A DNA stretch of 37,807 bases from Chlamydiales bacterium (GCA_047611865.1 JBLFWS010000009.1:1-37807); one strand, 5' to 3'; counted from the first letter of the stretch, positions 14,296-31,930 are shown. The notes: generated by a model from the letters alone, not told the origin. A program made the numbers and translations.

Positions 14296-15411
14296 ATGTT
14301 TATGAAGCTAATGTTTAGAGATGCGATTATCAAAGGAAAATCCTTTGGAGCGGAAAAGAATATTCATGGAGAAGTGGTTTTTAATACCGCCATGTCAGGT
14401 TATGTCGAAACATTGACAGACCCTTCTTATTATGGGCAGGTACTTGTTCTTACTTACCCAGTGCAAGGGAATTATGGTGTACCAGATATTAACTTTGAAT
14501 CAGACAGGATTCAGGTCGCAGGTCTTATTGTCTCTCACTACAGTGAAAACCCTAGCCACTATACCCAAAAAAGGTCGCTTGGAGATTGGTTGAAATCTCA
14601 AAATATACCTGCTATGTGTGACGTGGATACTCGTACTCTGACTCGTTATCTCAGAGAGCATGGTACAGCTCCAGCAGATTTACTTTCGAGCGACTATATT
14701 TCTGGTGATGAGATTGTGAAGTTTAAAAGTGAGGACTTTCTTGCAGAGGTCGTCTCTTCGAAGACAGTTCGTTATGGAAAGGGAGAAAGCAAGATTTTGT
14801 TTATTGATACAGGCGCAAAAGAAAATATAGTCCGCTGCCTGGTAAGCCGTGGAGCAAGTGTTATCAAAGCCCCATGGAATACAGACTGGGAAAAGTATTT
14901 ACCTGAAGTCGATGGAGTCTTTATTGCAAATGGTCCTGGTGATCCAATGGAAGCCCTGAGCTTAATTGATAGAGTTCGTGAGATTCTCTATTGCGGACTG
15001 CCCTTTTTTGGGATCTGCTTTGGTAACCAGCTTATTTCCATTGCAGCAGGGGCTCGTACGATAAAAATGAAGTACGGCCACCGCTCTGTAAATCAGCCTG
15101 TTCGTTCTCTTCGTTCAGGTAAATGTTACATCACTAGCCAGAACCATGGCTACGTGGTTCAAAATGAATCTCTTCCCCATGACTGGGAACCTTGGTTTGT
15201 GAATCTTAACGACGGGACAAATGAAGGGATTCGTCATAAGACTAAACCTATCCGCTCAGTTCAGTTTCACCCAGAGGCTAGACCGGGAACAAATGATACA
15301 GCCTTTTTGTTTGACGATTTTCTTACTACGGTCAAGGAAATGAAAAAAGAAAGAAAGGTCTCAGACCATATTGAAAAACTTGAGATGGCTGAAATTGATT
15401 GTGTCGCCTAA
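14296..15411 (+). CDS. carA: Carbamoyl-phosphate synthase small (glutaminase) subunit
   Basis: GEVVFNTAMSGY, LTDPSY, NGPGDP, catalytic GICFGNQ, SQNHGY and QFHPE. RBS AAGGAG. Confidence 0.97.
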   Translation: MFMKLMFRDAIIKGKSFGAEKNIHGEVVFNTAMSGYVETLTDPSYYGQVLVLTYPVQGNYGVPDINFESDRIQVAGLIVSHYSENPSHYTQKRSLGDWLKSQNIPAMCDVDTRTLTRYLREHGTAPADLLSSDYISGDEIVKFKSEDFLAEVVSSKTVRYGKGESKILFIDTGAKENIVRCLVSRGASVIKAPWNTDWEKYLPEVDGVFIANGPGDPMEALSLIDRVREILYCGLPFFGICFGNQLISIAAGARTIKMKYGHRSVNQPVRSLRSGKCYITSQNHGYVVQNESLPHDWEPWFVNLNDGTNEGIRHKTKPIRSVQFHPEARPGTNDTAFLFDDFLTTVKEMKKERKVSDHIEKLEMAEIDCVA

Positions 15412-15503
15412 TAAGACATCGAAAATTTGGAATAGTAACTCAAAAGACAACGAATAGAAAAAATGAAATTTATGAAACAATTGGAATATTTCGGAGATTG
15501 AAT

Positions 15504-18500
15504 ATGACTGTATATCCTGAACCCGACAGCAAGGGTTTGCTAAACAAGTTTCAAGTAAAATCGCGAGTTGTAAAACCAAAAAAAGTTCTCCTTTTAGGTT
15601 CTGGTGCTTTGCGTATCGGACAAGCTGGTGAATTTGATTACTCTGGGTCTCAAGCTCTTAAAGCTATGAGAGAGGAGGGTGTCAGCACGGTTTTAATCAA
15701 TCCTAATATAGCATCTATACAAACTGATGAAGGCTTGGCCGATAAGACATACTTTCTTCCCGTAGAGCCGGATTTTGTTGAAAAGATTATTGAGAAAGAA
15801 GAAATCGACGCGATCTTACTCAGTTTTGGTGGGCAAACAGCTCTTAATTGTGGTCTTGAACTTGAAGAAAAAGGGATTTTTTCTAAACACGGTGTTCGAG
15901 TTATGGGGACTCCTGTTAGCACAATTCGTCTGACGGAAGACCGTCACCTTTTTTCTGAACGACTCGCACAAATTGGAGTGAAAACCGCAAGAAGTAAAGC
16001 TGTTTATAATGTTGCAGACGTAGTCAAGACTGCCAACGAGATAGGTTTTCCTGTGATGATGCGCTCGGGTTTCTCGTTGGGGGGTAAAGGCTCAGGTGTT
16101 GTTCATAATGAAAAGGAATGCCGTCAACTTGCTGAAATTGTTTTTTCTTCCGTACAGCAAATTCTTGTAGAAGAGTGCCTTACAGGGTGGAAGGAAATTG
16201 AGTATGAAGTTGTTCGAGATGGAAGTGACAGTTGTGTCACTATCTGTAACATGGAAAATCTGGATCCAATGGGAGTGCATACGGGAGAGTCAATTGTTGT
16301 TGCTCCATCCCAGACCCTTGATGATTTTGAATATCAGATGTTACGTGATGTAGCGATCAAAACTATTAGGAGTTTAGGGATCATTGGCGAATGTAACATT
16401 CAGTATGCTCTGGATCCTCAATCAAGGGAATATAGAGTAATTGAGGTCAACGCCAGACTATCTCGTTCCTCAGCCCTGGCATCGAAAGCTACAGGCTATC
16501 CTCTTGCTTACGTTGCTGCTAAAATAGCCCTCGGTTATGACATGGCAGACATTCCTAATGCCATTACCAAGGTAACAACTGCGTACTTTGAGCCTGCTCT
16601 TGATTACATAGTATGTAAGATTCCTCGTTGGGATTTAGACAAATTTGACGGTATCGATCAAACTATTGGTACAGAGATGAAGTCCGTTGGAGAAGTCATG
16701 TCTATTGGACGCTCTTTTGCTGAAGTGATTCAGAAAGGGATCCGAATGCTGGAAATTGGCTTTGACGGTGTGGATTCTGGTGCATATGAGGGTGAAGACC
16801 TGAAGAAAGCCATTGCGACGCCTACTCCTAAAAGGATCTTTGCCCTAGCGAAAGGTTTCCAAATGGGAATGTCTGTTGATGAGATATTCGAACTGACCAA
16901 GATCGATCGCTTTTTCCTCTATGAAATTGAACGCATTGTGAAATTAGAAACAGAGCTGAAAGATTCTTGTCTTCAAGACATGGATAAAGGTCGCATGAGG
17001 ACCGTTAAGAAAGCGGGCTTCTCTGATAAAGGGATCGCTAAGTTTCTTAAATCCACTGAAGGGGAAGTACGGCGTCAGAGGCGCATTCTTGGAATTCGAC
17101 CCTTTCTTTCACAAATCGACACCCTGGCAGCGGAATACCCTGCAGAAACAAACTTTCTCTATTTGACGTATACAAATGTTAAGAGTGACGTTCAGCCTAG
17201 TGCAAAGAAGAAAGTGATGATTCTTGGCTCTGGCTGCTATCGAATAGGTGCCAGTGTGGAGTTTGACTGGTGTGGTGTCTCTGCAGTGAAGGCCGCAGAA
17301 GAATTGGGATACGAAGTTATAATGCTTAACTACAATCCTGAAACAGTTTCTACAGATTATGATAACTGTGATCGCTTGGTCTTTGACGAGATCAGCTTGG
17401 AAACTGTCCTTGAAATCTATGACTTCGAAAAGCCTGATGGTTTGATCGTGTCTATGGGTGGGCAGACTCCTAACAATCTCGCATTGAAGTTACACGAGGA
17501 AGATGTTCCTATATTTGGCACTCATCCTACTTCCATTGATAGTGCTGAAGATAGAAATAAGTTTTCAGCCATGCTTGATGAAATTGGTGTGGATCAACCT
17601 CTCTGGGCATCTAGTACGGGCCTTGACTTGACAGAGACGATCGACAATATCGGTGGCTTTCCAGTTCTTGTTCGGCCTTCATATGTGCTTTCAGGAGCAG
17701 CTATGCGTGTTGCTTATAACCATGATGAGCTCACTCATTTTCTGAATAAAGCAACAGACATTTCCTCTGATCATCCTGTTACTATCTCAAAGTTTGAGCA
17801 TGGTGTTCGTGAAGTAGAACTTGATGCGGTGGCGTACAATGGGGAGATAAAGTTATTTGCAATTTCAGAACATATTGAAAATGCTGGTGTCCATTCTGGT
17901 GATGCTACATTGGTGATTCCTCCACAGCGTCTTAATGTCGAAACGATGAAGAGGATTAAGCAAATAAGTGAGCGTATAGCTAGAGCTTTGAATATTACAG
18001 GCCCTTTTAATATTCAATTTTTATGTCTCAAGCACCATGTCATAAAGGTCATCGAGTGTAACTTGCGAGCTTCTCGTAGTTTCCCATTTATTTCCAAAGC
18101 TTTGGGGATTAATTTTATTCGCGAAGCGACGAAGCTAATGCTTTCGGGGAAAATGAGTGAAGGAATCAGACCGAACAACATTTTTGATATTGATTATGTT
18201 GTGACAAAGTCTCCACAGTTTTCTTTTTCCCGTTTAAAAGGAGCTGATCCAAGGCTTGGAGTGGAAATGGCCTCTACTGGAGAAGTAGCTTGTTTTGGTC
18301 GGGATGCAGAGGAGTCATTGCTAGCTTCTATGCTTGCCAGTGGTTTTAAAATTCCTCAAAAAGGCGTGCTTCTTTCTTTGGAAATAGAAGAAGATCGTCC
18401 AAGGTTTGTCCAGGAGGCTAAGCTATTATTGAAGCGTGAGCTAAAACTTTACGCATGCCCGCATACTGCCGAAGCTCTCAAGGTGGCCGGTGTAGAATGT

Positions 18501-18866
18501 CAGGCTGTAGACATCAGTGAAGTCTTAAAAGATGACAGAAAAGAATTGGTAGAGTTCTTGAAGTCAGGGAAAGTCGATATGATCATCAGTATACCTGGCG
18601 CAGCAAGGGTTACTACTACTCAAGAGGGCTATTGGTTGCGTAGGTTGGCAGTAGAACTCGAATTGTCATTTATAACTGATCTATGGCTGGCAAAACGCGC
18701 AGTACTTGCTATGGACATGTACAGTATTTCCGATATAGGAATTACATCTTGGAACAAGTATCTTCAAGCTGACAAACAGCCTCTTTTCGCTCATTCAAAG
18801 CAACTATCCTATCTTGCTGATGATAAGCGAGTAAAAAAAGAAGGAAGAGTACTTACTCACAAGTAA
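15504..18866 (+). CDS. carB: Carbamoyl-phosphate synthase large subunit
   Basis: GSGALRIGQAGEFDYSG, two ATP-grasp halves (EVNARLSRSSALASKATGYP; ECNLRASRS) and an MGS-like C-terminus. Start placed at ATG 15504 after GGAG. Confidence 0.97.
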   Translation: MTVYPEPDSKGLLNKFQVKSRVVKPKKVLLLGSGALRIGQAGEFDYSGSQALKAMREEGVSTVLINPNIASIQTDEGLADKTYFLPVEPDFVEKIIEKEEIDAILLSFGGQTALNCGLELEEKGIFSKHGVRVMGTPVSTIRLTEDRHLFSERLAQIGVKTARSKAVYNVADVVKTANEIGFPVMMRSGFSLGGKGSGVVHNEKECRQLAEIVFSSVQQILVEECLTGWKEIEYEVVRDGSDSCVTICNMENLDPMGVHTGESIVVAPSQTLDDFEYQMLRDVAIKTIRSLGIIGECNIQYALDPQSREYRVIEVNARLSRSSALASKATGYPLAYVAAKIALGYDMADIPNAITKVTTAYFEPALDYIVCKIPRWDLDKFDGIDQTIGTEMKSVGEVMSIGRSFAEVIQKGIRMLEIGFDGVDSGAYEGEDLKKAIATPTPKRIFALAKGFQMGMSVDEIFELTKIDRFFLYEIERIVKLETELKDSCLQDMDKGRMRTVKKAGFSDKGIAKFLKSTEGEVRRQRRILGIRPFLSQIDTLAAEYPAETNFLYLTYTNVKSDVQPSAKKKVMILGSGCYRIGASVEFDWCGVSAVKAAEELGYEVIMLNYNPETVSTDYDNCDRLVFDEISLETVLEIYDFEKPDGLIVSMGGQTPNNLALKLHEEDVPIFGTHPTSIDSAEDRNKFSAMLDEIGVDQPLWASSTGLDLTETIDNIGGFPVLVRPSYVLSGAAMRVAYNHDELTHFLNKATDISSDHPVTISKFEHGVREVELDAVAYNGEIKLFAISEHIENAGVHSGDATLVIPPQRLNVETMKRIKQISERIARALNITGPFNIQFLCLKHHVIKVIECNLRASRSFPFISKALGINFIREATKLMLSGKMSEGIRPNNIFDIDYVVTKSPQFSFSRLKGADPRLGVEMASTGEVACFGRDAEESLLASMLASGFKIPQKGVLLSLEIEEDRPRFVQEAKLLLKRELKLYACPHTAEALKVAGVECQAVDISEVLKDDRKELVEFLKSGKVDMIISIPGAARVTTTQEGYWLRRLAVELELSFITDLWLAKRAVLAMDMYSISDIGITSWNKYLQADKQPLFAHSKQLSYLADDKRVKKEGRVLTHK

Positions 18867-18910
18867 TCTTTTTGAATTTTTCATGGGGATTTCTTTCCAT
18901 GAATCTTAAA

Positions 18911-18950
18911 ACCCTTGGTGATAATAGTGAATTATCACCAAGGGTCTTTT
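18911..18950 (+). terminator. Intrinsic terminator after carB
   Basis: Perfect 15-bp stem ACCCTTGGTGATAAT/ATTATCACCAAGGGT followed by CTTTT. A second small hairpin lies at 18880-18903. Confidence 0.8.
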
Positions 18951-19156
18951 GCTATTAGAAATCATAAAGACCTTTTTAGAGGTCCTTTTAGGACTTCTTT
19001 AGAGACCTTTTTCAAGGAAAATGGATTAGAAAAATTTTAAGATTAAGGTAAAAGTAGTCGCAATTTTGAATGAAAATTCTATTGATTATGATTTTCGAAA
19101 TATCAGATTTTTATCGAACCAATGAAATGACTTTAAGTATCCAAAGGAACTCGAAT

Positions 19157-22100
19157 ATGTTTAAACGAATATTGGTAGCGAATCGAGGGGAAATAGCCTG
19201 TCGAATAATCAAAACCTGCCGCAAATTGAATATAGAATCTATTGCTCTTTACTCTGACGCAGATAGATCGGCACCTCATGTGAGGATGGCAGATCAAGCC
19301 GTTCATCTTGGAAACAGTAATCCGTTAGAAAGTTATCTAAACAGTCAGAAGATTATAGATATTGCAAAAGAGTATAAGGCTGATGCAATTCATCCAGGCT
19401 ATGGATTTTTAAGCGAAGATTTTCAATTTGCTGAAGAATGTGGAAAAAATAATATTACGTTTATAGGGCCTTCTTCACCTTCAATTCAGCAATTTAGCAT
19501 TAAAGAGCGGGCACGTAGATTTGCGGGAAATCTGGATATCCCCATAGTTCCTGGTTCTTCGAACATAGTTTCTTTGCAGGATGCTTTACAGTCTGCTGAG
19601 GAAATCGGATACCCAGTACTGTTGAAATGTTCTGGAGGCGGGGGGGGCATTGGTATGACACTCTGTCAATCTTCCGATGACTTATCCTCAGGATTTGAAA
19701 GTACGAAAAAGGCTGGCAAGACCTTTTTTAACAACGAAGATGTCTTTTTAGAAAAGTACATATCTGAGCCTCACCACATAGAGGTACAAATCTTTGGAGA
19801 TGGGAAAGGGAATATTGCCATTTTAGGAGAAAGAGAGTGCTCTATACAGAGGCGTTATCAGAAAGTTATAGAAGAAACGCCATCTCCCTTTTGCAGTGAG
19901 GACCTTCGCCAACAAATGTATGCTGCAGCCAGAAAATTGGGAGAGGGAGTTGCTTACGAGTCTGCTGGAACAGTAGAATTTCTTGTTGATGAAGAAGAAA
20001 ATACCTTTTACTTTCTGGAAGTCAATACGCGTCTGCAGGTTGAACATACAGTAACGGAACAAGTGAGTGGTATTGATCTTGTAGAGTGGATGATAAGACA
20101 GGCGGCCAAAGAAGAGCTTCATGTAAAAGATTACGTTTATAAAGTGAAAGGGCACTCAATTCAGGCTCGTGTCTATGCTGAAGATCCTTTAAAGAATTTT
20201 CAACCAAGTCCTGGTGTACTAACTGAAGTACAACATCCCAGCTTTCCTTGGCTTCGTATTGACAGTGGTGTGGAAACAGGATTTCAAGTTCCTAGTAATT
20301 ACGATCCCATGCTGGCGAAAATTATCGTACACGGGGAAGACCGAACAGAAGCGGTAAAAAGACTACAAGTGGCTTTGAAAGAGTCACGTTTTGATGGCTG
20401 CCAGACAAACTTGTCTTTTCTTCATCAAATAGTTTCCAGCAAGGCATTTTTATCCGGAAGAACTACCACAAATTTTCTGAAAGATTTAGTTTACGAAGCT
20501 CATCATATTGAAGTAATTGATGGGGGGATCAACTCATCAGTACAGGATTACCCGGGAAGAGCCGGATATTGGGATGTAGGAATACCTCGCTCTGGGCCAA
20601 TGGATCTTTTATCCTTTCGTATAGCAAATCTTCTCGTCGGAAATGCAGAAGGTGTGGCAGCCCTTGAATTTACTTTAGAAGGGCCAACGTTATTATTCCA
20701 TCAGGATACCGTAGTGGCCTTATCAGGGGCTGAGATGGAGGTCACTATTGATGGAGAGCCTGTTGAGTGGTGGAAAGCTATTCGTGTGAGGAAAGGGAAT
20801 GTCCTTACTGTGGGAGGTATATCAGGGGATGGATATAGATCTTATATGGCTGTACATGGAGGCTTGGATCTCCCTGAATATCTGGGTAGTAAGTCAACTT
20901 TTGCTTTAGGAAATATGGGAGGACTAAAAGGGAATACCGTTATTGAAGGGGACATCCTACCTATCCATAAGGAATCCAGACAAGAAGTTGATTTGTTTCA
21001 AAGAGCTTTGCCGAAAGAGTTTCAGCCTGTTTACGGCCGGGAGTGGAAAATTGATGTACTCTACGGGCCACATGGGGCACCTGACTTTTTCACGCAGGAA
21101 GACATAGACATGTTTTTCTCCGCAGCATGGAAAGTACATCACAACTCTAATCGGATGGGTATTCGTTTGATTGGTCCAAAACCTAAATGGGCTAGGCAAG
21201 ATGGAGGAGAAGCGGGCCTACATCCTTCTAACATCCACGATTGTGAATACGCAGTAGGAGCTATTAACTTTACAGGGGACATGCCAATTATTCTCACCCA
21301 TGATGGGCCTAGTTTAGGGGGGTTTGTTTGTCCCGCAACAATCATTCAGGCTGACATGTGGAAGTTGGGGCAGGTAAAACCTAATGATACCATCACTTTT
21401 GTGAAGGTCTCCTATGATGCTGCTATTGCAAAAAAGAAAAAACAGGAAGGTTTTCTTACTAATGTGAAAAACCGGTCTTGGGAGAGAAAAATCTTGCAGG
21501 AGCGAATAAATGAGGGTGGGGTTCTCTATGAACATCCTGGTGATGAGAAGAAGCCTAAGTTCGTGATCCGTATGGCAGGAGACCGTTACGTTTTAATTGA
21601 GTACGGTCCTATGGTTCTGGATCTTGACTTACGATTCAGGATTCATGCTTTAATGGAGTGGCTATCCTCTCATGATGTTGATGGGATACTTGAGATGTCG
21701 CCTGGAGTTCGTTCTGTGCAAATCCGTTATGATAATAAGGTGATCTCCTTGTATCGCTTATTGGATGTGTTGCTGGAAGCGGAAGAAGGCTTGCCTGATA
21801 TAAAAGAGATGGTAGTGAAGTCCAGAGTGGTAAAGCTGCCAATTGCTTTAGATGACCAATGGTGTCGAGCAGCAGTAGATACTTATATGAAGTCAGTACG
21901 AGATACGGCTCCTTACTTACCTGATAACATCGAGTTTATTAAGAGAATTAATGGACTGGGAACATCTGATGAAGTCTTGAAAACAATTTGTGAAGCCGAG
22001 TACCTAGTCCTTGGTCTTGGAGATGTATATCTGGGAGCCCCTTGTGCCGTTCCTCTTGACCCAAGGCATCGTCTGATTACTTCCAAGTACAACCCTGCTC

Positions 22101-22786
22101 GTACCCTTACTCCTGAAGGAGCTGTGGGTATTGGTGGTGCCTATATGTGTATCTACGGTATGGAATCACCAGGTGGTTATCAGTTGGTTGGCAGAACCCT
22201 TCCCATTTGGGATAAGTTCGTCAAAAACTCTAACTTTGTGGATAACAAACCTTGGTTGTTGCGCTTTTTTGACAGGGTTAGCTTCTATCCAGTAAGTGAT
22301 GAAGAGCTTATCGAACTCAGGAACGACTTTAAAAATGGAAAAATCAATCTTAAGATTGAAGAGGGAGACTTCCATTTAAAGGACTATCACGATTTCCTTG
22401 ATGCAAATGCAAAAGATATTGAGCAGTTTCAAACGAAGCAAAAAATAGCCTACCAAACTGAGGTTAAGCTTTGGAAAGAACAAGGTATGATCGGAGGTGG
22501 TGATGAGGTACTCAATCTTATTGGTGATGGAATAGGTCCAAAAGACGAGGTGATCATTCCGGACAATTGCTTCGCAATAAAGGCTAAGTATTGTGGGAAT
22601 ATTTCTGATATTTTAGTCAAAGTTGGAGATAGAGTAGAGCCGCAGCAAACAATAGCTGTTGTAGAGGCCATGAAAATGTTCATGGATATAAAAGCTCAGT
22701 CTGGCGGTGTTGTGAAAGAAGTCATTGGAGAAAAAGGCTCTGTCATTAACCAGGGAGAGATTATCCTTATTGCTGACAAGGGTTAA
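19157..22786 (+). CDS. uca: Urea carboxylase (biotin carboxylase + carboxyltransferase + BCCP)
   Basis: ILVANRGEIA, FLEVNTRLQVEH, QDYPGRAGYWDVG, GGEAGLHPSNIHD, DGPSLGGF, TSKYNPART and C-terminal EAMKM biotin site. Start placed at ATG 19157 after AAGGA. Confidence 0.95.
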   Translation: MFKRILVANRGEIACRIIKTCRKLNIESIALYSDADRSAPHVRMADQAVHLGNSNPLESYLNSQKIIDIAKEYKADAIHPGYGFLSEDFQFAEECGKNNITFIGPSSPSIQQFSIKERARRFAGNLDIPIVPGSSNIVSLQDALQSAEEIGYPVLLKCSGGGGGIGMTLCQSSDDLSSGFESTKKAGKTFFNNEDVFLEKYISEPHHIEVQIFGDGKGNIAILGERECSIQRRYQKVIEETPSPFCSEDLRQQMYAAARKLGEGVAYESAGTVEFLVDEEENTFYFLEVNTRLQVEHTVTEQVSGIDLVEWMIRQAAKEELHVKDYVYKVKGHSIQARVYAEDPLKNFQPSPGVLTEVQHPSFPWLRIDSGVETGFQVPSNYDPMLAKIIVHGEDRTEAVKRLQVALKESRFDGCQTNLSFLHQIVSSKAFLSGRTTTNFLKDLVYEAHHIEVIDGGINSSVQDYPGRAGYWDVGIPRSGPMDLLSFRIANLLVGNAEGVAALEFTLEGPTLLFHQDTVVALSGAEMEVTIDGEPVEWWKAIRVRKGNVLTVGGISGDGYRSYMAVHGGLDLPEYLGSKSTFALGNMGGLKGNTVIEGDILPIHKESRQEVDLFQRALPKEFQPVYGREWKIDVLYGPHGAPDFFTQEDIDMFFSAAWKVHHNSNRMGIRLIGPKPKWARQDGGEAGLHPSNIHDCEYAVGAINFTGDMPIILTHDGPSLGGFVCPATIIQADMWKLGQVKPNDTITFVKVSYDAAIAKKKKQEGFLTNVKNRSWERKILQERINEGGVLYEHPGDEKKPKFVIRMAGDRYVLIEYGPMVLDLDLRFRIHALMEWLSSHDVDGILEMSPGVRSVQIRYDNKVISLYRLLDVLLEAEEGLPDIKEMVVKSRVVKLPIALDDQWCRAAVDTYMKSVRDTAPYLPDNIEFIKRINGLGTSDEVLKTICEAEYLVLGLGDVYLGAPCAVPLDPRHRLITSKYNPARTLTPEGAVGIGGAYMCIYGMESPGGYQLVGRTLPIWDKFVKNSNFVDNKPWLLRFFDRVSFYPVSDEELIELRNDFKNGKINLKIEEGDFHLKDYHDFLDANAKDIEQFQTKQKIAYQTEVKLWKEQGMIGGGDEVLNLIGDGIGPKDEVIIPDNCFAIKAKYCGNISDILVKVGDRVEPQQTIAVVEAMKMFMDIKAQSGGVVKEVIGEKGSVINQGEIILIADKG

Positions 22787-22898: not shown

Positions 22899-24971
22899 CT
22901 AGATCCTTTGAAGCTCAATAGATCTTCTTTGTGCTTCTATATCATCAACTTCTTCTATTGTCAGGGCACCGTTATTTTGAGCTTCTTCTCTGGTATTTTT
23001 AGGCATAAGGAATTTGTCGCAGAGCAGAGCTGTAGCGGCCAGTGCGGGAAGTAATAGAAATTGATATCCAGTGTCTTCAGTTTCATTTAAGAGGTCTAGG
23101 GCTCCAAGAGCTAGTGCGAGAATGGGGCCACCCATTGCTCCAACACCATTTACAACACCACTGGCAATTCCAAAATTGTTGGAGGCTTCTTCTGCTAACC
23201 AGCTAAATAAACCATAGTTGGCAACACCCATGCCTATCGCTGTTACACCAAGGAAAGGTAATGAAGAGGATAATTCTCTGGAAAAGGTAAGCCCTACACT
23301 TCCTAAGCCTAAAGTGGCCAACCCGATTTTTGTAGCAAGTTCTCCCCGCCTTGCTAAGGGGGTTTTTCCTGTAATGGTCCTGGCAAGGGAGTTAACAATA
23401 GAAAAAATGCCGGTATATGTCAGAGAATCAAATTGAGAGGAGCCCCGTTCAGTGAAGTAGAATGGCAACGTAGCAATGAGTGAAAGGAGTCCACCAAGGC
23501 TTACAACATTGTTAAAAGCTAAAACTGCGACGCTGTTTTTTTCGGAAATACTTAGGGTTTTTAATTTTTCCATTACGGAGCAAATTTCAGTACCAGGAAA
23601 AAGTTCCTGACCAAGCCACAATGAAATCTCTTTGGACTTTTCAGGTGGGATTCCCTTGTTGACTAACTGATGATATATGGAATTATTTAAGTACTTGTGA
23701 GTTAAGCTCGTTCCGAAAAGGGATATTCCAAGCCATATAAAGTAGGCATTACTTAAGCCGATTTGATCTATGGCAACGGCTTGGATGATGTTGGAAATTC
23801 CTGGAGATAGAGTTCCGATCCCTCCTGCAAACCCTTGACGTATTCCTGCTTCGTTAGCTTTTCCTGAACGTGTCGCAATAGAGAATGTTGCGGGAACGAC
23901 AGAAAGGCCTGCACCGGCAACAATTCCTGAAAGTCCCAGGCCAAAGACTTCAAGACTTAGGTCATCTATACTAGCAAGATCTATTTGACTGGTTAAGATT
24001 GCCAAGGAGGCTATGCCAATTGCACTGGTGACTAATAATTGCAATATTGTTTTTCGCCCGCCATAGTTGTCGGCTTGATTGCCAACCCAAAATTGTGCGG
24101 TAGAGCCAACAATTATTGGTGCAGCAGCTAAGGCAAATTTGAGGGGGGTACTTAACAGCTCTGCTTTATTCAAAGCGGCCGCCATTATCCCCGCAGGTGC
24201 AAAACCCGTAGCAAAGGCTAGGGCAGCGGCATTACGGTCTTTTGTAGGGCTTGCTTTGACGTTTAAGATTTTATCTGTGTATTTTCGAAATCTAAAAGGT
24301 ATATCTTTTTTCTTTAAAGTTTTAGCCTTTGTTAGGCTCCATTTGTTAAATATCAATTCATCTAGTTCATCAAAAAGAGAGCAAAAGGAAGGAGGCAAAT
24401 TGCTAAAAAAGCTTTCTGAGCTGTTCAAAGAATTCCAGGCTTTTAGTTCTTCGTATAATTGAGAAAGAAGTGGAGGCAGGCTTAAGTCTTCTTGTAGGAA
24501 TGAGTTTCTTACGTTCTTTACTTCATGCAACTCTTGGAAAAGAGAGTGTAACTTTGTGCTGGTATCGAAATTTTTAGCGATTTGATTGAGGTCGATATTT
24601 TCGATTTCCTGGAAAAAGGAGCTTAAAGCTTCATGAAAATTGAAATCTGATTGATTGATCCCTTGGGAAAGCTTTGAAATGAGTTTTTCCAGATCTTTAA
24701 AATGACATTCTTTGAGAGGATGAAAGCGTTCTTTTAGTTCTATTGGGAACTGTTCTTTAGAACAATTATTCTCACATATGATTTCTAATTGTCGTATAAG
24801 TAGTTCCGAAACTTTCCTTGGGGAGTTAGGAGAAAGGTTTTTTACTGTATCATTGTAAATACTGACAGAGCGCGCTTGAAGATTTCCTGAAGTATTTTGT
24901 AAATTACCGGAACTGTTTTGTGTGTTGGTATTATTATTAATATTGTTGAAATAGTTACAGGGGAAACTCAT
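22899..24971 (-). CDS. MFS transporter (NarK/NNP-like) with a ~240-aa soluble N-terminal extension
   Basis: Many hydrophobic helices after residue ~245, MFS motif A-like GNQADNYGGRK, and G-rich NarK-like segments (QGFAGGIGTLSPG; GIASGVVNGVGAMGG). The N-terminus is N/S/T-rich. Confidence 0.75.
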   Translation of the reverse strand: MSFPCNYFNNINNNTNTQNSSGNLQNTSGNLQARSVSIYNDTVKNLSPNSPRKVSELLIRQLEIICENNCSKEQFPIELKERFHPLKECHFKDLEKLISKLSQGINQSDFNFHEALSSFFQEIENIDLNQIAKNFDTSTKLHSLFQELHEVKNVRNSFLQEDLSLPPLLSQLYEELKAWNSLNSSESFFSNLPPSFCSLFDELDELIFNKWSLTKAKTLKKKDIPFRFRKYTDKILNVKASPTKDRNAAALAFATGFAPAGIMAAALNKAELLSTPLKFALAAAPIIVGSTAQFWVGNQADNYGGRKTILQLLVTSAIGIASLAILTSQIDLASIDDLSLEVFGLGLSGIVAGAGLSVVPATFSIATRSGKANEAGIRQGFAGGIGTLSPGISNIIQAVAIDQIGLSNAYFIWLGISLFGTSLTHKYLNNSIYHQLVNKGIPPEKSKEISLWLGQELFPGTEICSVMEKLKTLSISEKNSVAVLAFNNVVSLGGLLSLIATLPFYFTERGSSQFDSLTYTGIFSIVNSLARTITGKTPLARRGELATKIGLATLGLGSVGLTFSRELSSSLPFLGVTAIGMGVANYGLFSWLAEEASNNFGIASGVVNGVGAMGGPILALALGALDLLNETEDTGYQFLLLPALAATALLCDKFLMPKNTREEAQNNGALTIEEVDDIEAQRRSIELQRI

Positions 24972-25149: not shown

Positions 25150-25689
25150 ATGATAATGAAAACTGAGATGGTCACAACGCAAGAGCAAGAGCTTAAAAAT
25201 AAGCAAATGAAAGATATAGAAGAGCTGCTGTCTTACAGTGTGCCTCAATCCGAATATTTTCGTATTTTAAATTCACTAGTGGAAATACTGAATAACTACG
25301 AAAATATTTCAGAAGACGATTCCTGGGTGTCCTTTAACAAATGCAAAACAGGAACTGTATACAGAAATATATTATACCATTGCCCTGGAAAAGATAATGA
25401 AGATGTTTTGGTTGTTTTGAAATATGATCATGCAGAAGTAGATTTTCATTATCATAGTGGAGAAGAACATATTCTTGTCTTAGAAGGGTATCAGGAAACC
25501 CTAAACCATGAAAAGTATGATGAGCTTCAACCAGAGCTGTTCAGTAAAATTAAAGATGATCGCTTCAACTACACCCGTGATGATGGAATTGTAGTAAATA
25601 ACGTCGGTACAGGTCATAGCGTAAAAAGTGATCACTGCCTTGTCCTAATTCACTATAAAAAGTTACCTGAATTCCCTTTGTCCCATTGA
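25150..25689 (+). CDS. Cupin-domain protein (ChrR-like cupin fold)
   Basis: HYHSGEEHILVLEG metal motif plus downstream GTGHSV. RBS AGGAGAG. Confidence 0.7.
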   Translation: MIMKTEMVTTQEQELKNKQMKDIEELLSYSVPQSEYFRILNSLVEILNNYENISEDDSWVSFNKCKTGTVYRNILYHCPGKDNEDVLVVLKYDHAEVDFHYHSGEEHILVLEGYQETLNHEKYDELQPELFSKIKDDRFNYTRDDGIVVNNVGTGHSVKSDHCLVLIHYKKLPEFPLSH

Positions 25690-25727
25690 TCAAATCAGGG
25701 GGGAATTCCCCTGGAGTGTGTGTGATT

Positions 25728-26654
25728 ATGCGTGGATTGATTGTAAGTAAAAGCTTGCTTGATTTTTTTGTAGAGCCAGGCACCGAAGGAACGGTTTATA
25801 ATACTTTTTCTCGTTCGTGCAACATGCGTTTCGGGAATAATCTTATAGGAATAGTTTCAGAAGATATTGGTGTTAATCCCTTTAGCATTGTTATTTCGGG
25901 TGATGAATTTTTCTCCTGGAAGAATCGTATTCAAAGAGGCATGAAGGTAGTTTTTTATTCTGATGAAATACGGATTGGTTCAGAGCTATGCTTGGATTTA
26001 CGGACCTCTTCAGTTTGGGATCCCTCTTTTTTATTGGAGCTTGGAAAGGAAAACACCGATAGATCTGTAAACATTCTGACAAACTTGTTCTCGTCTCTAG
26101 AAGGGACACGCCCTGTATTGGATATCACACAAGAGTATTTTCAAAAAGGGTTCTTGTACCAGTTAGTGGAAGACCCATATTGTGAGCCATTCGTTCGTAT
26201 TTTGTGTGTTCTTTTTGAGAAGGAAGAATTTTCTGAGCCTTCTTTTGAGGATGCTATCTGTGGTCTCATTGGATTTGGAAAGGGGTTAACCCCCTCGGGT
26301 GACGACTTTCTATCAGGTTTAGTCGGGATATTAAACATCGCTGATAAAAGAGCTTACCTTAGCCATGATTTAGTAAGTGTGTTGTCAAAACTCAATCGAT
26401 GCCTGGAAGACAGTATTCAATCCAACAAGACGACATTGATAAGTAATATGTTGTTACAATCAGCTCTTAATGGCTGGTTCTCAGAAAAAGTTAGCAATTT
26501 TTTACTGGCCTTGCTTGAACAAAAAAATGACATAAGAAGTCATTTAGATGAGGTTTTGTCAATTGGCCATCATTCTGGATCAGATATCCTCGCGGGGATT
26601 TATACGGGATTTCAATTACTCAACAAAAGGAATACGCTATGCCAAATTCAGTGA
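25728..26654 (+). CDS. DUF2877 protein (YahE / AllH-YlbF family), carbamoyltransferase complex subunit
   Basis: LIGFGKGLTPSGDDFLSG, TTLIS and SIGHHSGSDILAG signature motifs. An alternative TTG start lies at 25686. Confidence 0.9.
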   Translation: MRGLIVSKSLLDFFVEPGTEGTVYNTFSRSCNMRFGNNLIGIVSEDIGVNPFSIVISGDEFFSWKNRIQRGMKVVFYSDEIRIGSELCLDLRTSSVWDPSFLLELGKENTDRSVNILTNLFSSLEGTRPVLDITQEYFQKGFLYQLVEDPYCEPFVRILCVLFEKEEFSEPSFEDAICGLIGFGKGLTPSGDDFLSGLVGILNIADKRAYLSHDLVSVLSKLNRCLEDSIQSNKTTLISNMLLQSALNGWFSEKVSNFLLALLEQKNDIRSHLDEVLSIGHHSGSDILAGIYTGFQLLNKRNTLCQIQ

Positions 26655-28075
26655 TACTTAAAGAAAACACCTATTTCGATTCCATTACTCTTATGTCTAT
26701 CTCAAGTAAAATACAAGGCTTGGACGGTATTACTTCAGTTCAAGTGGCTATGGGCACAGACCATAATAAGATGTTACTGAAAGATGCAGGGATGTGGGAG
26801 GAGGAAGCACAGTCTGCTAGTCCAAATGATTTGTTGATTGCTTTTTCCTCTCGGGCAGGGGATCAAAAAAAGGCGGTATTGGAGCTTATTGATCAATTGT
26901 TGTTTTCCGATAAAGCCGATGAGAGCAGTCAGGGAAATGGGACAAAGGAATTTAAGCGAATTCCTGACGCACTTAAACATAATCCAGACTTAAATTTAGC
27001 CTTGATTTCTGTTCCGGGAGAATATGCTGCCAGAGAAGCAAAACAAGCCTTGGAGCATGGTCTTCATGTGATGATGTTTAGCGATAATGTATCCATCGAT
27101 GATGAGAGGCTGCTGAAAGAGCTGGCTATGGAGAAGGATTTGTTAATGATGGGGCCTGATTGTGGGACAGCAATTATTAATGGAAAGGGACTAGGATTCT
27201 CAAATAAGGTAAAAAAAGGGAATATCGGAATTGTAGGGGCTTCAGGGACAGGTATCCAGGAATCCACTGTTTTGCTAGATCGATTGGGTTTGGGTATCAC
27301 TCATGCGATTGGTACAGGTGGAAGAGATTTAAAAAGAGAAATCGGAGCTTTGACAATGAAGCAGGGCCTTCGTTTGCTGGAAAAGGATCCCCACACTGAA
27401 ATTATAGTTCTTATTTCTAAAACACCAGACAAGGATGTGGCAAGGGACCTTTTAGCTTGCTTACAGTCATTTAACAAACCTGTGGTGGTATGTTTTATGG
27501 GACATTTCGAGAGCCAAGAAGCGGAACGCTTCATTCCAATATTTTCGAACCTTACTGATGCTACTATACATGTTGCTTCTCTATTAAATGTTTCAGCAGA
27601 AATCCTGAGACAGAGTGAAGTAGAAAAGCCCCTTCTTCAAAAATCACAGACAAAAATCTATGGTTTATTTTGTGGAGGTACTCTTTGTTCAGAAGCCGAG
27701 CACATTATTGGGAAATCCCATACCTTTATAGATTTTGGTGATGATGAGTATACAAAAGGCAAGCCCCATCCCATGATAGACCCAAGTACAAGAAATGACG
27801 CTTTTCTTCACTATGCTAAAAAAGATGATGCGGCGGTTCTTTTGTTTGATATCGTTCTTGGTTACGGAAGTCATGAGGACCCTGCGGGGAATCTTGCACC
27901 TGTTATTCGGAAAATACGGCAAGAAAAGGACGTCCTGTTCATCGCATCAGTTTGTGGCACAGAAAGCGATCCTCAAGTTTACTCTCGACAAGTTTCTCAA
28001 CTTAAGGAACTAGGTGTTATTGTGGCCTCAAGTAATGCAAATGCAGCTGAGTTGGCGAAATCAATCATTCAATAA
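26639..28075 (+). CDS. FdrA-family acyl-CoA-synthetase-like protein (YahF / AllF)
   Basis: YFDSITLM, MGTDHNK, LALISVPGEYA, MMFSDNV, MMGPDCGTAII, GASGTGIQE, GTGGRDL, GLFCGGTL and GKPHPMIDP. Confidence 0.93.
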   Translation: MPNSVILKENTYFDSITLMSISSKIQGLDGITSVQVAMGTDHNKMLLKDAGMWEEEAQSASPNDLLIAFSSRAGDQKKAVLELIDQLLFSDKADESSQGNGTKEFKRIPDALKHNPDLNLALISVPGEYAAREAKQALEHGLHVMMFSDNVSIDDERLLKELAMEKDLLMMGPDCGTAIINGKGLGFSNKVKKGNIGIVGASGTGIQESTVLLDRLGLGITHAIGTGGRDLKREIGALTMKQGLRLLEKDPHTEIIVLISKTPDKDVARDLLACLQSFNKPVVVCFMGHFESQEAERFIPIFSNLTDATIHVASLLNVSAEILRQSEVEKPLLQKSQTKIYGLFCGGTLCSEAEHIIGKSHTFIDFGDDEYTKGKPHPMIDPSTRNDAFLHYAKKDDAAVLLFDIVLGYGSHEDPAGNLAPVIRKIRQEKDVLFIASVCGTESDPQVYSRQVSQLKELGVIVASSNANAAELAKSIIQ

Positions 28076-28088
28076 ACGACTAATGAAC

Positions 28089-28291
28089 GGCCTTGTTGTA
28101 TAAATCAAACCACTGAGCCACAGAGATCAGTGAGAAAATATGAGAAAATGAGATAAAGTTCAAAAGACATCGAAAATGCCCTGTTAACGTATTCAGAGTT
28201 GATTTTTCTATTTTTTTATTTCATTTCTCAATTTACTCATACCTCCTCGCTGATCTCTGTGACTCAGTGGTTTAAATTGCGCAACAACGCC
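28089..28291. mobile_element. 203-bp MITE-like element with long imperfect terminal inverted repeats and a 9-bp flanking direct repeat
   Basis: Left GGCCTTGTTGTATAAATCAAACCACTGAGCCACAGAGATCAGTGAG versus right-end reverse complement GGCGTTGTTGCGCAATTTAAACCACTGAGTCACAGAGATCAGCGAG. Flanked by CTAATGAAC (28080-28088) and CTAATGGAC (28292-28300). Confidence 0.75.
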
Positions 28292-28314
28292 CTAATGGAC
28301 AAGGAACAGCAAAA

Positions 28315-29712
28315 ATGACTCTTGATAATGAATTAAAGGTTTTAAACATCGGCAGTCCTTTATTTAAGGAAGCCTTGGAAGAACAGAATGTTTTTACAAC
28401 TCAGCTCAACTGGAAACCCGTTGCCGGTGGCAACCCTGAACTTATTAAAGCCCTGGATAAAGTGCAAAATTCAGATCTTATAGATAAAGCAAATGAGAAA
28501 GCCATTAAAAGACTACTGTCATCAAAGCCAGTTCTTGCTGGAATGGCTTTAGCGGGAGAGGTTATTCCCGATATGACAGCTACAACAATCCTTCATGCGG
28601 GGCCTCCGATAGACTGGGAGAGAATGTCTGGTCCTCTACGTGCTGCGATACTTGGGGCAATGGTATTTGAAGGGCTGGCTGATGATTTGAAGGCTGCTGA
28701 GAAAAGAGTAGAGGCTGGGGATATCACCTTTTCACCCTGTCATGAACATCAAGCAGTGGGGCCAATGGCTGGGGTGACAAGTTACTCGATGCCTGTTTTT
28801 ATAATAGAGAATAAAACTTACCGCAATAAAGCTTTTTGTACTGTTAACGAGGGATTGGGGAAAGTCTTACGCTATGGGGCAAATAGTGAAGAAGTAATTC
28901 GTCGACTACTTTGGATTAAGGAGGTTCTTTATCCTATTTTGAAAGAGGCTATTTCTAACTTAGACGAAATTGATTTGAAGGTTGTGATAGCTCAAGCTTT
29001 GCATATGGGTGATGAAGGCCATAACCGCAATAAAGCAGCGACTTCTCTGATAATCCGTACTCTTTTACCCGGCCTTCTTTCTGTGGATTGTCCTCGAGAT
29101 AAGCTTGTTGAGGTTTTGAAATTTATGAATGGAAATGATCACTTTTTCCTAAACCTTTCAATGCCTACAGCTAAGGTTTGTTTGGATGCGGCAGACAATA
29201 TTGAACACAGTACTATGGTAACCTGTATGGCCAGAAATGGAACAGATTTCGGAATCAGAATTAGTGGTTTAGCAGGCAGATGGTTTACAGGACCTGCAAA
29301 CTTTGTAAAGGGACTTCTATTTCCCGGCTATACAGAGGATGATTGCAATCCTGACATTGGGGATAGTTCAATTACGGAAACCTTTGGTATTGGAGGTTTT
29401 GTCATGGCTGGAGCTCCAGCAATTGTGCAATTTGTTGGGGGCACTTCTGATGATGCCCTGAATTATACAAGGAGTATGTATGATATTACTCTCACACAAA
29501 ATTCGGCATTTTCTATTCCTACGCTAAATTTTAAGGGATCCCCCACGGGAATTGATTTGAGAAAGGTTATTGAATTTAATCAACTTCCAGTAATCAATAC
29601 GGGGATTGCCCACAAGGTTGCAGGGGTTGGAATGGTGGGAGCTGGTGTTGTTTATCCACCCAAAATTTGTTTTGAAGAAGCTTTGAAGGTTTTTGCAGCA
29701 TCTGAGGCCTGA
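28315..29712 (+). CDS. DUF1116 protein (YahG / AllG-YlbE family), carbamoyltransferase complex subunit
   Basis: ILHAGPPI, PCHEHQAVGPMAG, NEGLGKVLRYGA, MGDEGHNRN, MARNGTDFGI, DIGDSSITET and PVINTGIAH. YahG-type N-terminal KVLNIG...WKPVAGGN segment. Confidence 0.93.
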   Translation: MTLDNELKVLNIGSPLFKEALEEQNVFTTQLNWKPVAGGNPELIKALDKVQNSDLIDKANEKAIKRLLSSKPVLAGMALAGEVIPDMTATTILHAGPPIDWERMSGPLRAAILGAMVFEGLADDLKAAEKRVEAGDITFSPCHEHQAVGPMAGVTSYSMPVFIIENKTYRNKAFCTVNEGLGKVLRYGANSEEVIRRLLWIKEVLYPILKEAISNLDEIDLKVVIAQALHMGDEGHNRNKAATSLIIRTLLPGLLSVDCPRDKLVEVLKFMNGNDHFFLNLSMPTAKVCLDAADNIEHSTMVTCMARNGTDFGIRISGLAGRWFTGPANFVKGLLFPGYTEDDCNPDIGDSSITETFGIGGFVMAGAPAIVQFVGGTSDDALNYTRSMYDITLTQNSAFSIPTLNFKGSPTGIDLRKVIEFNQLPVINTGIAHKVAGVGMVGAGVVYPPKICFEEALKVFAASEA

Positions 29713-29722
29713 CAATCTTAAG

Positions 29723-29767
29723 ATAGTTTGGAGTGCTGCAAAAAGAGCACTCCAAATTATATTATTT
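29723..29767 (+). terminator. Terminator-like hairpin after the DUF1116 gene
   Basis: ATAGTTTGGAGTGCT-GCAAAAAG-AGCACTCCAAATTAT followed by an AT-rich tail. Confidence 0.7.
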
Positions 29768-29941
29768 AGGTCGAGTATTAAAATTACAAATGCCCGATTT
29801 TTTGATCTTTTGTGGCATTGACGAAGCCTTCATGAGGAACGAAGTTCCGCTACAGTAATAGCCTAGTTCGAAGTGAGCCCTTGGCGAACGCAGGGCTAGG
29901 AAAGGAACAAGTTGAGGTATTTGAGCGCTGAAAGTGCGACA

Positions 29942-30692
29942 GTGCGCTTGTGATGGTATACGATAAGAGAAGTGAGAGTCCTCTTCAAGAAATGTTGCAA
30001 TCTTGCAGCTGAAAGTAACTGCGTCACCGTGAGGTGGAGAGCAACTGGAAGCGGATATTCAGGCCGTAGGATAACGAACTCGATTCGGTTCAATAACATG
30101 GCGAGTCCCTCTGTCGGACGACGAAGCCTGAAACTCAGTACTCACGATAAGCAACTATCATCGATGAGTGCATGTTATTGGGTGGTTGGAGATGGCATGA
30201 ATAGAAGGTCGTATACAGTAAGCAAGGATACCTTACTCTGAATTGTGACAGAGTAAGGAGTCAGAGCCCGCATAGTACTGAAGATACAGATTGTGTCGAA
30301 AAGTATGGAAACCAAAGCCATACCGAGGGAAGACGGGTAGGAAAGTAGATATTGAAAATATAGAAAGATGGAATCTCGGAGTGACAATATATCTAGACAA
30401 GAGATAGAGAAACAAACCAGATATACAGACAACATAAGGCAAACGAGCAACCTAAGATGTCGCTGGGAATGGGTCGAACCATCAATCTGGATAGACGATA
30501 TGTTGACAGCTCTGGAGACGGAGTGAAAGGTGTATTCTTCGCGAATTTAGGACTCTTCACAATGGAAAAAGCCAGAGTCTTAGAGCTAGCGTGCCGATCC
30601 CGATGAGGAAACTACTAACTGGAGAGCCGTATGCGTTAATAGCGCACGTGCGGTTCGGAGGGAGGGGTGGCGAAATCCATCCCTACCTCTAT
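29942..30692 (+). mobile_element. Group II intron (AGC triad, IIB-like 3' end), 751 nt, with its RT ORF internally deleted
   Basis: 5' GTGCG at 29942. Domain V GAGCCGTATGCGTTAATAGCGCACGTGCGGTTC at 30624-30656. Domain VI with unpaired A30685, 8 nt from the 3' end ...CTACCTCTAT. Removing it restores the host palindrome. Confidence 0.9.
30368..30606 (+). pseudogene. Remnant of the intron-encoded RT/maturase (N- and C-terminal ends fused)
   Basis: ATG 30368 frame gives ...RWEWVEPSIWIDDMLTALE. After a frameshift it reads GVKG joined directly to FFANLGLFTM...CRSR*. These resemble the start and end of bacterial IEPs; no RT domains (YADD) remain. Confidence 0.75.
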
Positions 30693-30964
30693 CAAAAAAG
30701 TCACTAAGTCTTTTTGTGTCGCACTTTCAGCGCTTATAATTACGTGTGGGTCTATTCCTAGCCCTGCGCTCGCTAAGGGCTCACTTCGGACTAGGCTATT
30801 GGTGCGGCGGAACTTCGTTCCTCATGAAGGCTTCGCCTACGCCACAAAACAGCCAGGTGAGTGCGCATCATTAACGGCTTGGCTCGAGTATAAAATTAGG
30901 TGAGTTACAAGCCGATTCAAAAGTAAGACAAAATGCTCCAAAATCAACGTTCCGCTATTTTAAT

Positions 30965-31930
30965 TCACGAACTAGTTCCAATTAGAGTTTTCTCAGGAAC
31001 TTCGACCTTTCCCAAAAGTAGTCCTAGTATTGCCATGCGCACGTAAACACCATTTTTTGCTTGCTTGAAGTATTTTGCTCTTGGATCAGAGTCAATTTCT
31101 GTATGGATTTCGTTGATACGTGGGAGGGGATGCATAATGCAAAGGTCCAGTTTTGCATTTCTTAGTATTTCATTGTTTACTTGGTAGCGATCTCTGACCT
31201 GTAAGTAGGTCTTTTCATCTTCAAACCTTTCTCCTTGAACTCTGGTTACATACAAAACATCTAAATCTTCGATGGCAGCTTCTAAGTCACTGACTTCGTC
31301 AACACGATGACCCTCCGATCGGAGCTTATCGACGATGTGAGCAGGCATTTTTAAGCTGGGATGGGAAATGAAAACAAAGTGTATAGGGAAGAGATTTAAA
31401 AGGCTGCACAGAGAATGAACTGTACGGCCGAATTTTAAGTCACCGAGTAGACCAATTTTAAGATTTTCGAGCTTTCCTTTTTCTCTAGAGATTGTGTAGA
31501 GATCTAGGAGGGCTTGGGATGGGTGCTGATTGGGACCATCACCTGCATTTATTACTGGTACATCTGATGTACTGGATAGTTTGTCTACTGAAAATGGGTC
31601 TGGGTGTCTTGTAACGATGATATCAGCATATCCGCTAATGACTTTTCCCATATCTTCAAGGGTCTCCCCTTTCATTGCTGAGGTGGAACCTCCACTCTCA
31701 ACTGTGATAACACTTCCTCCAAGTTTAGTCATGGCTGTTTCAAAAGAAAGCCGAGTACGGGTACTCGGCTCAAAAAACAGTGTGGCTAAGATCTTCCCCT
31801 TTAAAAGAGGAAGATCGATACCCTTGGAAATATTATCCTCAACATATTTTGATGCATTCAAAATCAGGTTTATGTCGTTAAGACCTAACTCATCTGTTGA
31901 TAAGAGATGCTGAGAATTCAATTGGGTCAC
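30965..31930 (-). CDS. pyrB: Aspartate carbamoyltransferase catalytic subunit
   Basis: FFEPSTRTRLSF, KGETLED, NAGDG..HPSQALLD, GDLKFGRTVHSL, TRVQGERF and MHPLPR. Confidence 0.95.
   Translation of the reverse strand: MTQLNSQHLLSTDELGLNDINLILNASKYVEDNISKGIDLPLLKGKILATLFFEPSTRTRLSFETAMTKLGGSVITVESGGSTSAMKGETLEDMGKVISGYADIIVTRHPDPFSVDKLSSTSDVPVINAGDGPNQHPSQALLDLYTISREKGKLENLKIGLLGDLKFGRTVHSLCSLLNLFPIHFVFISHPSLKMPAHIVDKLRSEGHRVDEVSDLEAAIEDLDVLYVTRVQGERFEDEKTYLQVRDRYQVNNEILRNAKLDLCIMHPLPRINEIHTEIDSDPRAKYFKQAKNGVYVRMAILGLLLGKVEVPEKTLIGTSS

Follow-up and report, generated by a model that had tools for sequence, protein, structure and literature searches.

To our knowledge urea is broken down by only two routes, urease, and urea carboxylase followed by allophanate hydrolase, both of which free all of the nitrogen as ammonia. 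Here we describe a locus of a Chlamydiales bacterium in which a urea carboxylase gene (uca) lies close to the genes of an AllFGH/YahEFG-type transcarbamylase trio, and which may encode a route from urea via allophanate to carbamoyl phosphate. The stretch of DNA that was analysed (GCA_047611865.1, JBLFWS010000009.1:1-37807; called the window in the following) has a length of 37,807 nucleotides and is the whole of contig C9 of a 3.59-Mb assembly with 272 contigs, which is 95.5% complete and 2.5% contaminated. Its features were derived from a listing of open reading frames (ORFs) and from family scans with Pfam and NCBIfam (TIGR and NF models), and RNA elements from Rfam. The original prediction for this DNA had placed carA-carB, uca, an MFS transporter gene, a cupin gene, the DUF2877-FdrA-DUF1116 trio and pyrB in one cluster at 14296..31930 and had proposed that the trio turns allophanate into carbamoyl phosphate. 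All of these genes were found there, which confirms the observation; the interpretation is partly supported.

Comparison with known systems

The only member of the transcarbamylase family that has been assayed is AllF-AllG-AllH of E. coli, described together with AllK by Kim & Kim (2024, PMC11326118). According to the accessible passages of that paper it interconverts oxalurate plus phosphate and oxamate plus carbamoyl phosphate. The trio in the window belongs to the same three families (PF00549/PF02629, PF06545 and PF11392), and the chemistry that we propose for it is the same, namely the phosphorolysis of an N-acylurea. It differs from the AllFGH-AllK system in the gene order, which is H-F-G and not F-G-H, in the cupin gene coupled in front and in having urea carboxylase as a neighbour; in addition the identities are only 39% to AllF and 44% to AllG, and no carbamate kinase or allantoin genes were found in the genome. 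The closest named relative is YahE-YahF-YahG of E. coli, an uncharacterised system accompanied by the carbamate kinase-like YahI, which has the same order DUF2877-FdrA-DUF1116 and shows 43% (YahF) and 52% (YahG) identity to the respective subunits. Unlike E. coli, the genome studied here is without homologues of YahI and of the amidohydrolase YahJ.

On the urea side the closest system is the urea carboxylase/allophanate hydrolase pathway (urea amidolyase; K. lactis structures 3VA7 and 5I8I). The carboxylase in the window is likewise of full length and predicted to be of the urea type, as the catalytic Asp, the Asn specific to urea enzymes and the biotin motif are all present, whereas an amidase-family allophanate hydrolase was found neither in the window nor elsewhere in the genome. 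Two further groups of loci carry a similar trio. Clusters in Chloroflexota, Bacillota and other phyla combine it (AllG 50-64% identical) with a cyclase-family hydrolase and often with a molybdenum hydroxylase, and presumably these are also modules that convert ureides to carbamoyl phosphate. The window has neither a cyclase nor a hydroxylase, whereas none of the 160 loci of this kind that were retrieved has uca. In ammonia-oxidising archaea and comammox Nitrospira, allFGHK adjoins the gene of biuret hydrolase (biuH), a producer of allophanate, so that there too the trio stands beside an enzyme whose product is allophanate (accessible passages of PMC12625717). In contrast to the window, those loci contain carbamate kinase and, in the bacterial ones, atzF; no urea carboxylase is involved and the authors read the trio as oxalurate-degrading (same passages). 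In full-text searches and the passages that they returned we came upon neither allophanate phosphorolysis nor a link between uca and AllFGH, the supplement of PMC12625717 being outside their scope.

For the locus in the window we propose the following route. Urea, either released by the cell's own agmatinase or imported, would be carboxylated with ATP to allophanate. Allophanate, which is an N-acylurea like oxalurate, would then react with phosphate on the trio to give carbamoyl phosphate and carbamate, and this step would replace the missing allophanate hydrolase. The carbamoyl phosphate would pass to PyrB, the only recognised consumer in the genome, and the carbamate would decay to CO2 and NH3, with the NH3 being recaptured by glutamine synthetase and CarAB. 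Because the carboxylase is of the urea type, no enzyme acting on allophanate was found, the family of the co-acquired trio phosphorolyses the nearest chemical analogue and the pair of uca and trio probably recurs once, we consider the phosphorolysis of allophanate to carbamoyl phosphate feeding PyrB to be the most economical reading. By analogy with AllFGH we propose it tentatively, as a reading that falls short of being probable. It is possible, if rather doubtful, that cupin-AllH-AllF-AllG forms an allophanate phosphorylase (allophanate:phosphate carbamoyltransferase) which together with uca would turn urea into carbamoyl phosphate, spending one ATP on each urea, while free ammonia, glutamine and CarAB would be bypassed by the first carbamoyl group.

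If the route exists, it would be a third way of assimilating urea beside urease and urea amidolyase, one in which the energy-rich carbamoyl group is conserved and passes straight into pyrimidine synthesis. The YahEFG branch of the transcarbamylase family, which was not recognised until 2024, would gain its first physiological substrate, and this would suggest that the widespread YahEFG-type enzymes act as general N-acylurea phosphorylases. It would also show urea recycling by a host-associated chlamydia-like bacterium, the urea being its own or possibly made by the host.

The urea carboxylase and its product

The uca gene (19070..22786, + strand) encodes biotin carboxylase, carboxyltransferase and biotin carboxyl carrier protein (BCCP) domains, all of which were found by Pfam. 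It scores 1723 bits against TIGR02712, for which the equivalog cut-off is 1304, and covers model positions 1-1199 of 1201. About three quarters of the enzymes annotated as urea carboxylases are predicted to carboxylate guanidine, being distinguished by an Asp where the urea enzymes have Asn in the active site (PMC12186494), and a published screen separates the urea from the guanidine enzymes by Asn or Asp at position 1330 of the K. lactis protein, with a conserved Asp at 1584 (PMC11410670); both statements follow the accessible passages of these papers. In order to locate the residues we aligned uca to the K. lactis structures 3VA7 and 5I8I. Asn733 (in GAINFTGD) corresponds to N1330 and Asp985 (in GLGDV) to D1584, and the biotin motif EAMKM is present with K1202. 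The Asn is found in the window enzyme and in its 13 closest relatives, and among the best 120 matches 90 have Asn and 30 have Asp. We saw no guanidine pathway: the position equivalent to 1330 is not Asp, DUF1989/CgdAB (PF09347) had no match in the genome, and no riboswitch, the guanidine riboswitch included, was found at Rfam gathering scores in the window. With Asn733 in place and neither DUF1989 nor a riboswitch, the product of the enzyme should be allophanate, in agreement with what had been predicted.

Search for other enzymes in the genome

Allophanate hydrolase and carbamate kinase had been reported as absent from the window. Their absence holds and extends to the whole assembly, where we found no match to allophanate hydrolase (TIGR02713) or to the amidase family as such (PF01425), none to the urease alpha subunit and none to carbamate kinase (TIGR00746). 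The controls of these profile searches were positive in 12-13 of 14 genomes. The E. coli proteins YahI, AllK, AllC, AllD, AllE and YahJ gave no tblastn match at 1e-3 in the genome, which extends the negative result to the allantoin genes. Since no DUF1989/CgdAB, AllC/AllD/AllE, urease or carbamate kinase was found, the cell appears to have no internal source of oxalurate.

The gene gatA is present in 20 of 20 relatives, and in this genome neither gatA nor gatB was found. A search for gatB matched in one place only, the C-terminal, YqeY-type domain of a protein of 785 aa (contig C16, 31890-34244, - strand). This protein carries a class I aminoacyl-tRNA synthetase signature, and from its motif we read it by eye as glutaminyl-tRNA synthetase (GlnRS). 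As gatB is gone as well and a GlnRS-YqeY fusion is present, the absence of gatA looks real and not like a gap in the assembly. The gene content suggests that gatCAB was replaced and that direct charging has taken over from the amidotransferase route, which would be unusual for the order.

An agmatinase was found above its cut-off and an arginase-like gene below its cut-off; given the agmatinase, the cell probably produces urea itself. The genome also encodes glutamine synthetase. A search with PF00185 returned pyrB as the only gene of the OTCace family.

The trio and the cupin

The three AllFGH/YahEFG-type subunits are encoded together on the + strand: the DUF2877 or AllH/YahE-like subunit (25686..26654; PF11392, 87 bits), the FdrA or AllF/YahF-like subunit (26639..28075; NF004760, 504 bits; PF02629 and PF00549) and the DUF1116 or AllG/YahG-like subunit (28315..29712; PF06545, 328 bits). 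The allH gene overlaps allF, and the stop of a 179-aa ORF in front (25150..25689, + strand) overlaps the start of allH, so that the trio operon begins with this ORF. The AllH sequences vary much more than those of AllG (20-26% identity), and their GxGxGLTPSGDDF motif is invariant in the alignment.

The 179-aa ORF had no Pfam match above the cut-off, the Pfam cupin models scoring below theirs. Its AlphaFold2 model (predicted local distance difference test, pLDDT, of 90.5) consists of two helices followed by a predicted cupin fold, for which Foldseek returned metal cupins at E 1e-5; these matches are generic, with template modelling (TM) scores of 0.4-0.5. The motif HxHxxxE...GTGH is kept in the few homologues of the protein. 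Its naming as a cupin in the original prediction thus holds by predicted fold and metal motif. Cupins include amidohydrolase-type ureide enzymes such as ureidoglycine aminohydrolase, and the cupin, alone or with the trio, could itself be a new allophanate hydrolase or decarboxylase, with the trio acting on its product or serving as a scaffold. The overlap of its stop with the start of allH would agree with this, as would the intact metal-binding motif and the rarity of the protein, which has 7 matches at E<=0.001 among 1.84 billion representative proteins. However, the structural matches are generic and none is specific, and nothing shows a co-occurrence with uca elsewhere, so that we regard such an enzyme as highly improbable.

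For AllG we computed a FastTree phylogeny with 87 rows of 205 sequences, comprising P0001-P0045, two proteins of E. coli and 40 loci drawn at random. The window protein falls into a clade that comprises 20 rows and has a local support of 99%. This clade takes in all matches of 64-87% identity and includes sequences with the source labels Patiriisocius and Marinamargulisbacteria. When we scanned it for specificity switches, the clade was found to depart from the rest of the family at one of 153 columns with at least 90% conservation outside the clade and to keep the other 152; the control clades had 0 and 1 such switches.

Related loci

The related loci that we retrieved number 160, and their AllG proteins are 50-64% identical to that of the window. 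Many of the loci are short, and therefore the following counts are lower bounds. Neighbours were counted at E<=1e-8 and a coverage of at least 0.4 (uca, carAB, MFS, cupin, pyrB, carbamate kinase) or at least 0.5 (cyclase, isochorismatase). None of the 160 loci has uca, and likewise none has carAB, the MFS gene, the cupin or pyrB. A cyclase-family hydrolase (PF04199) is present in 126 of 160 and an isochorismatase in 10 of 160. Carbamate kinase, which the original prediction had taken for the usual partner of allFGH/yahEFG, occurs in one locus out of 160 and is not the usual partner in this family. We called 113 ORFs in ten of the loci, and 73 of these, from nine loci, were annotated. In all nine the cyclase directly follows AllG, five contain subunits of the xanthine-dehydrogenase type (molybdenum hydroxylase), two an isochorismatase and one a gene of the amino-acid-kinase family. 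The isochorismatases beside two trio loci were considered as biuret hydrolases; they received no NCBIfam name and the identity was not called.

AllG relatives also occur in 194 plasmid records, and neither of the two whose context was examined has uca. The first is Aminobacter sp. SR38 plasmid pSR8 (9031-22843), with the order hypothetical-fdrA-DUF1116-ring-opening amidohydrolase-carbamate kinase (arcC)-amidohydrolase-BMP/ABC transporter-DUF2877. Here, on a conjugative plasmid, the trio stands beside an enzyme of the barbiturase/cyanuric-acid-hydrolase type. The second carries a lone Vibrio AllG-family gene. From the cyclase and hydroxylase contexts the family looks like a general module for ureides that arise from ring opening.

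These contexts bear on another explanation, according to which the trio acts on a different N-acylurea (oxalurate, ureidomalonate or carboxybiuret) that is imported by the MFS transporter or provided with the help of the cupin, again with carbamoyl phosphate for PyrB as the product, while uca is a separate acquisition whose product is handled otherwise. Oxalurate is the substrate of the only characterised member of the family, the ring-opening hydrolases and molybdenum hydroxylases beside its relatives suggest varied ureide substrates, the conserved core of AllG is unchanged, and foreign genes for an MFS transporter and a cupin, both of unassigned role, adjoin the trio. On the other hand, the allophanate from a urea-type carboxylase would be left without a consumer, no enzyme that makes a ureide was found (neither AllC/D/E nor a cyclase homologue), and uca and the trio probably stand together on a second contig. 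We consider this explanation somewhat unlikely.

The immediate surroundings of the window AllG differ from those of most relatives, as no homologue of the cyclase (PF04199) was found in the window or beside another member of its clade (L101), where FdrA-AllG is followed by unrelated genes. The recurrence of uca with the trio, which had been proposed as a check of the pathway, was not seen in the 160 loci and is probable in one other place. The third-best AllG match (P0004, 71% identity) and the fourth-best uca match (P0125, 58% over the carboxyltransferase part) are both singletons, found on a single Logan contig each, and in both cases the contig has a length of 45,367 bp. Very probably this is the same contig, which would be one independent case of uca and AllG travelling together. 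Between the cupin homologue P0245 (8 contigs, the longest 16,152 bp) and the AllG homologue P0011 (8 contigs, the longest 17,184 bp) no tie was established.

Origin of the island

The genes between carB and pyrB are scarce or missing in related chlamydiae. An AllG-like gene was found in 0 of 40 relatives of the same order and uca in 0 of 40, with accC as the sole type of match, and the MFS gene was found in 0 of 20. Among 400 genomes of other Chlamydiota one matched AllG, with a lone degraded pseudogene fragment that has no FdrA, AllH or uca nearby. Together with the few cupin homologues mentioned above, this marks uca, the MFS gene, the cupin and the trio as foreign to the lineage. Judged from this distribution, uca, the MFS gene and cupin-AllH-AllF-AllG are horizontally acquired and inserted within an ancestral carAB-pyrB locus. 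The island is real; it is rare among the retrieved relatives and nearly unique in the phylum. The MFS gene (22899..24971, - strand; PF07690) encodes a transporter with an N-terminal extension of ~250 aa and had only generic MFS matches in the Atlas. A second copy of this long transporter with 64-65% identity, also seen in 0 of 20 relatives, lies on contig C127 (7499-9490, + strand).

In related chlamydiae carAB and pyrB stand together without any uca or trio. The order is carA-carB-(~1 kb)-pyrB-pyrC-pyrD-pyrE-pyrF, which is complete and on one strand in two relatives (G007 and G010). A short contig of a third relative (G020) shows carB-pyrB-pyrC, and in a fourth (G006) pyrB to pyrF are followed by a homologue of a metallophosphoesterase in the window (13312..14076, - strand; PF00149; 52% identity), which forms the native left flank of the locus. 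In the genome studied here the ancestral operon carA-carB-pyrB-pyrC-pyrD-pyrE-pyrF(-phosphoesterase) is split over two loci, with carAB in both and the rest present once. Contig C39 (13768-22018) carries carA-carB-pyrC-pyrD-pyrE-pyrF without pyrB, and the window (13312-31930) carries the phosphoesterase and the second carAB, then the foreign genes and, beyond them, pyrB.

The second copies in the window are carA (14296..15411, + strand; TIGR01368, 415 bits) and carB (15399..18866, + strand; TIGR01369, 1428 bits), which encode the small and the large subunit of carbamoyl-phosphate synthase; the real start of carB is probably further downstream than the listed TTG. Both subunits score above their equivalog cut-offs. 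The window carA is 73% identical to that on C39 and the window carB 78-79%, compared with 42-53% to the full-length carB of relatives and up to 61% to a carB fragment from the one genome of the same family. As the CarB copies are far closer to each other than to those of the relatives, the duplication is specific to this lineage. Both CarA copies keep the motifs GICFGNQ and FHPE, which we take to be the catalytic triad of the glutaminase. An ammonia-specific CarA that has lost its catalytic Cys was looked for, and the motif is intact in both copies.

The original prediction had also counted the clustering with carAB and pyrB as a sign of functional coupling. This does not stand: the adjacency is ancestral and therefore reflects the site of insertion, and a strong terminator-like hairpin with a 15-bp stem (18911-18945) parts carB from uca. 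The same findings bear on a synthetic role of the trio, in which carbamoyl phosphate from the adjacent second CarAB would be transferred to an amide or carbamate acceptor to give a ureide (allophanate, a biuret-like compound or another), which the MFS transporter may export. A CarAB as producer is indeed adjacent, the carbamate kinase that pulls the E. coli enzyme in the catabolic direction is absent, and the E. coli oxamate transcarbamylase was assayed in vitro in the synthetic direction, with Km values for carbamoyl phosphate and oxamate (accessible passages of PMC11326118). However, CarAB is there by ancestry and is set apart by the hairpin, the product would have no apparent use, and urea carboxylase already spends ATP on making allophanate. 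We consider a synthetic trio to be very unlikely.

Gene order and mobile elements

The order of the foreign genes was checked in public sequencing runs. In a run from a different study, which is not flagged as a possible source of the DNA, contigs bridge carB-uca-MFS-cupin-AllH-AllF with 0-1 differences, so the gene order is not an artefact of the assembly. Two repeats are associated with the trio. The first is a repeat of ~186 bp with terminal inverted repeats, similar to a miniature inverted-repeat transposable element (MITE), which is located between allF and allG (28100..28285). A copy with 90% identity was found on contig C69 and end-fragments on 14 further contigs, and the assemblies of the public runs break at this repeat. 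The insertion may affect the expression of allG.

The second repeat follows allG and its terminator-like hairpin (29723-29760). It is a multi-copy element of 976 bp (29838..30813) with inverted ends of ~100 bp and a match to group II intron domain V (RF00029 at 30622-30692). Its read depth is 130-225 compared with 8-14 in the flanks, copies occur on many contigs, many of them at contig ends, and contig C127 with the second long MFS gene also carries a piece of it. In two runs we found contigs without the element, in which AllG is joined straight to pyrB (29837 to 30814). It has the appearance of a non-autonomous mobile element, variable within the population. The 1.25 kb separating allG and pyrB contain no long ORF.

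Multi-copy mobile repeats within and beside the operon raise the question of whether the adjacency has a functional meaning at all. Mobile elements may have gathered unrelated genes, and allophanate may decay spontaneously or be degraded by an enzyme that has gone unrecognised or by a hydrolase encoded in the 4.5% of the genome that is unassembled. In line with this, uca, the MFS gene and the cupin-trio operon are separate transcription units, as seen from the strand change and the hairpins, none of the 160 loci links the trio to uca, and the assembly is in 272 contigs. However, urea carboxylase genes normally stand beside their hydrolase gene, and here 37.8 kb of continuous sequence around uca are without one. 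Furthermore the whole amidase family is missing and gatCAB appears to have been replaced, and the probable second co-occurrence is among the very closest relatives of both proteins. We therefore regard a meaningless adjacency as distinctly unlikely.

Evidence for and against the proposed route

The proposed allophanate phosphorolysis draws support from the urea-type carboxylase, the agmatinase as an internal source of urea, the failure to find another sink for allophanate, the probable second contig with uca and AllG and the published loci with allFGHK beside a producer of allophanate, and the absence of a cyclase from the window and from L101 sets this AllG clade apart from the relatives that presumably act on ring-opening products. 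Several observations weigh against it. The substrate of the trio, the direction of its reaction and any role of the cupin are assigned by analogy with AllFGH, above all the step with allophanate, and carbamate is a poorer leaving group than oxamate. The unchanged core of AllG means that any change of substrate would not be written there. The linkage of uca with the trio is rare, uca and the other genes of the locus being absent from all 160 retrieved loci, and the cupin has no role in the proposal. From the ancestral neighbourhood of carAB and pyrB the route receives no support, and the hairpin lies between carB and uca. Two copies of CarAB already serve a single known consumer of carbamoyl phosphate, so that the need for a third source is unclear. 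Finally, 4.5% of the genome is unassembled.

Neighbouring genes

To the right of the island pyrB (30965..31930, - strand; TIGR00670, 356 bits) encodes aspartate carbamoyltransferase. It is followed by argH (31951..33519, - strand; TIGR00838, 505 bits), the gene of argininosuccinate lyase, which we list as a neighbour and for which we do not claim membership of the island. This argH stands alone in so far as argG and ornithine carbamoyltransferase (argF) were not found in the assembly.

Two other regions of the window were noticed. The first, at 12220-13224 (+ strand), is an ORF of 334 aa for which neither Pfam nor NCBIfam returned a match and of which the genome contains no paralogue. The second, at 34718-36896 (- strand) and next to metF, consists of two ORFs (404 and 326 aa) that lie side by side and overlap; each matches domains of cobalamin-independent methionine synthase, and they represent either a split MetE or two MetE-like proteins.

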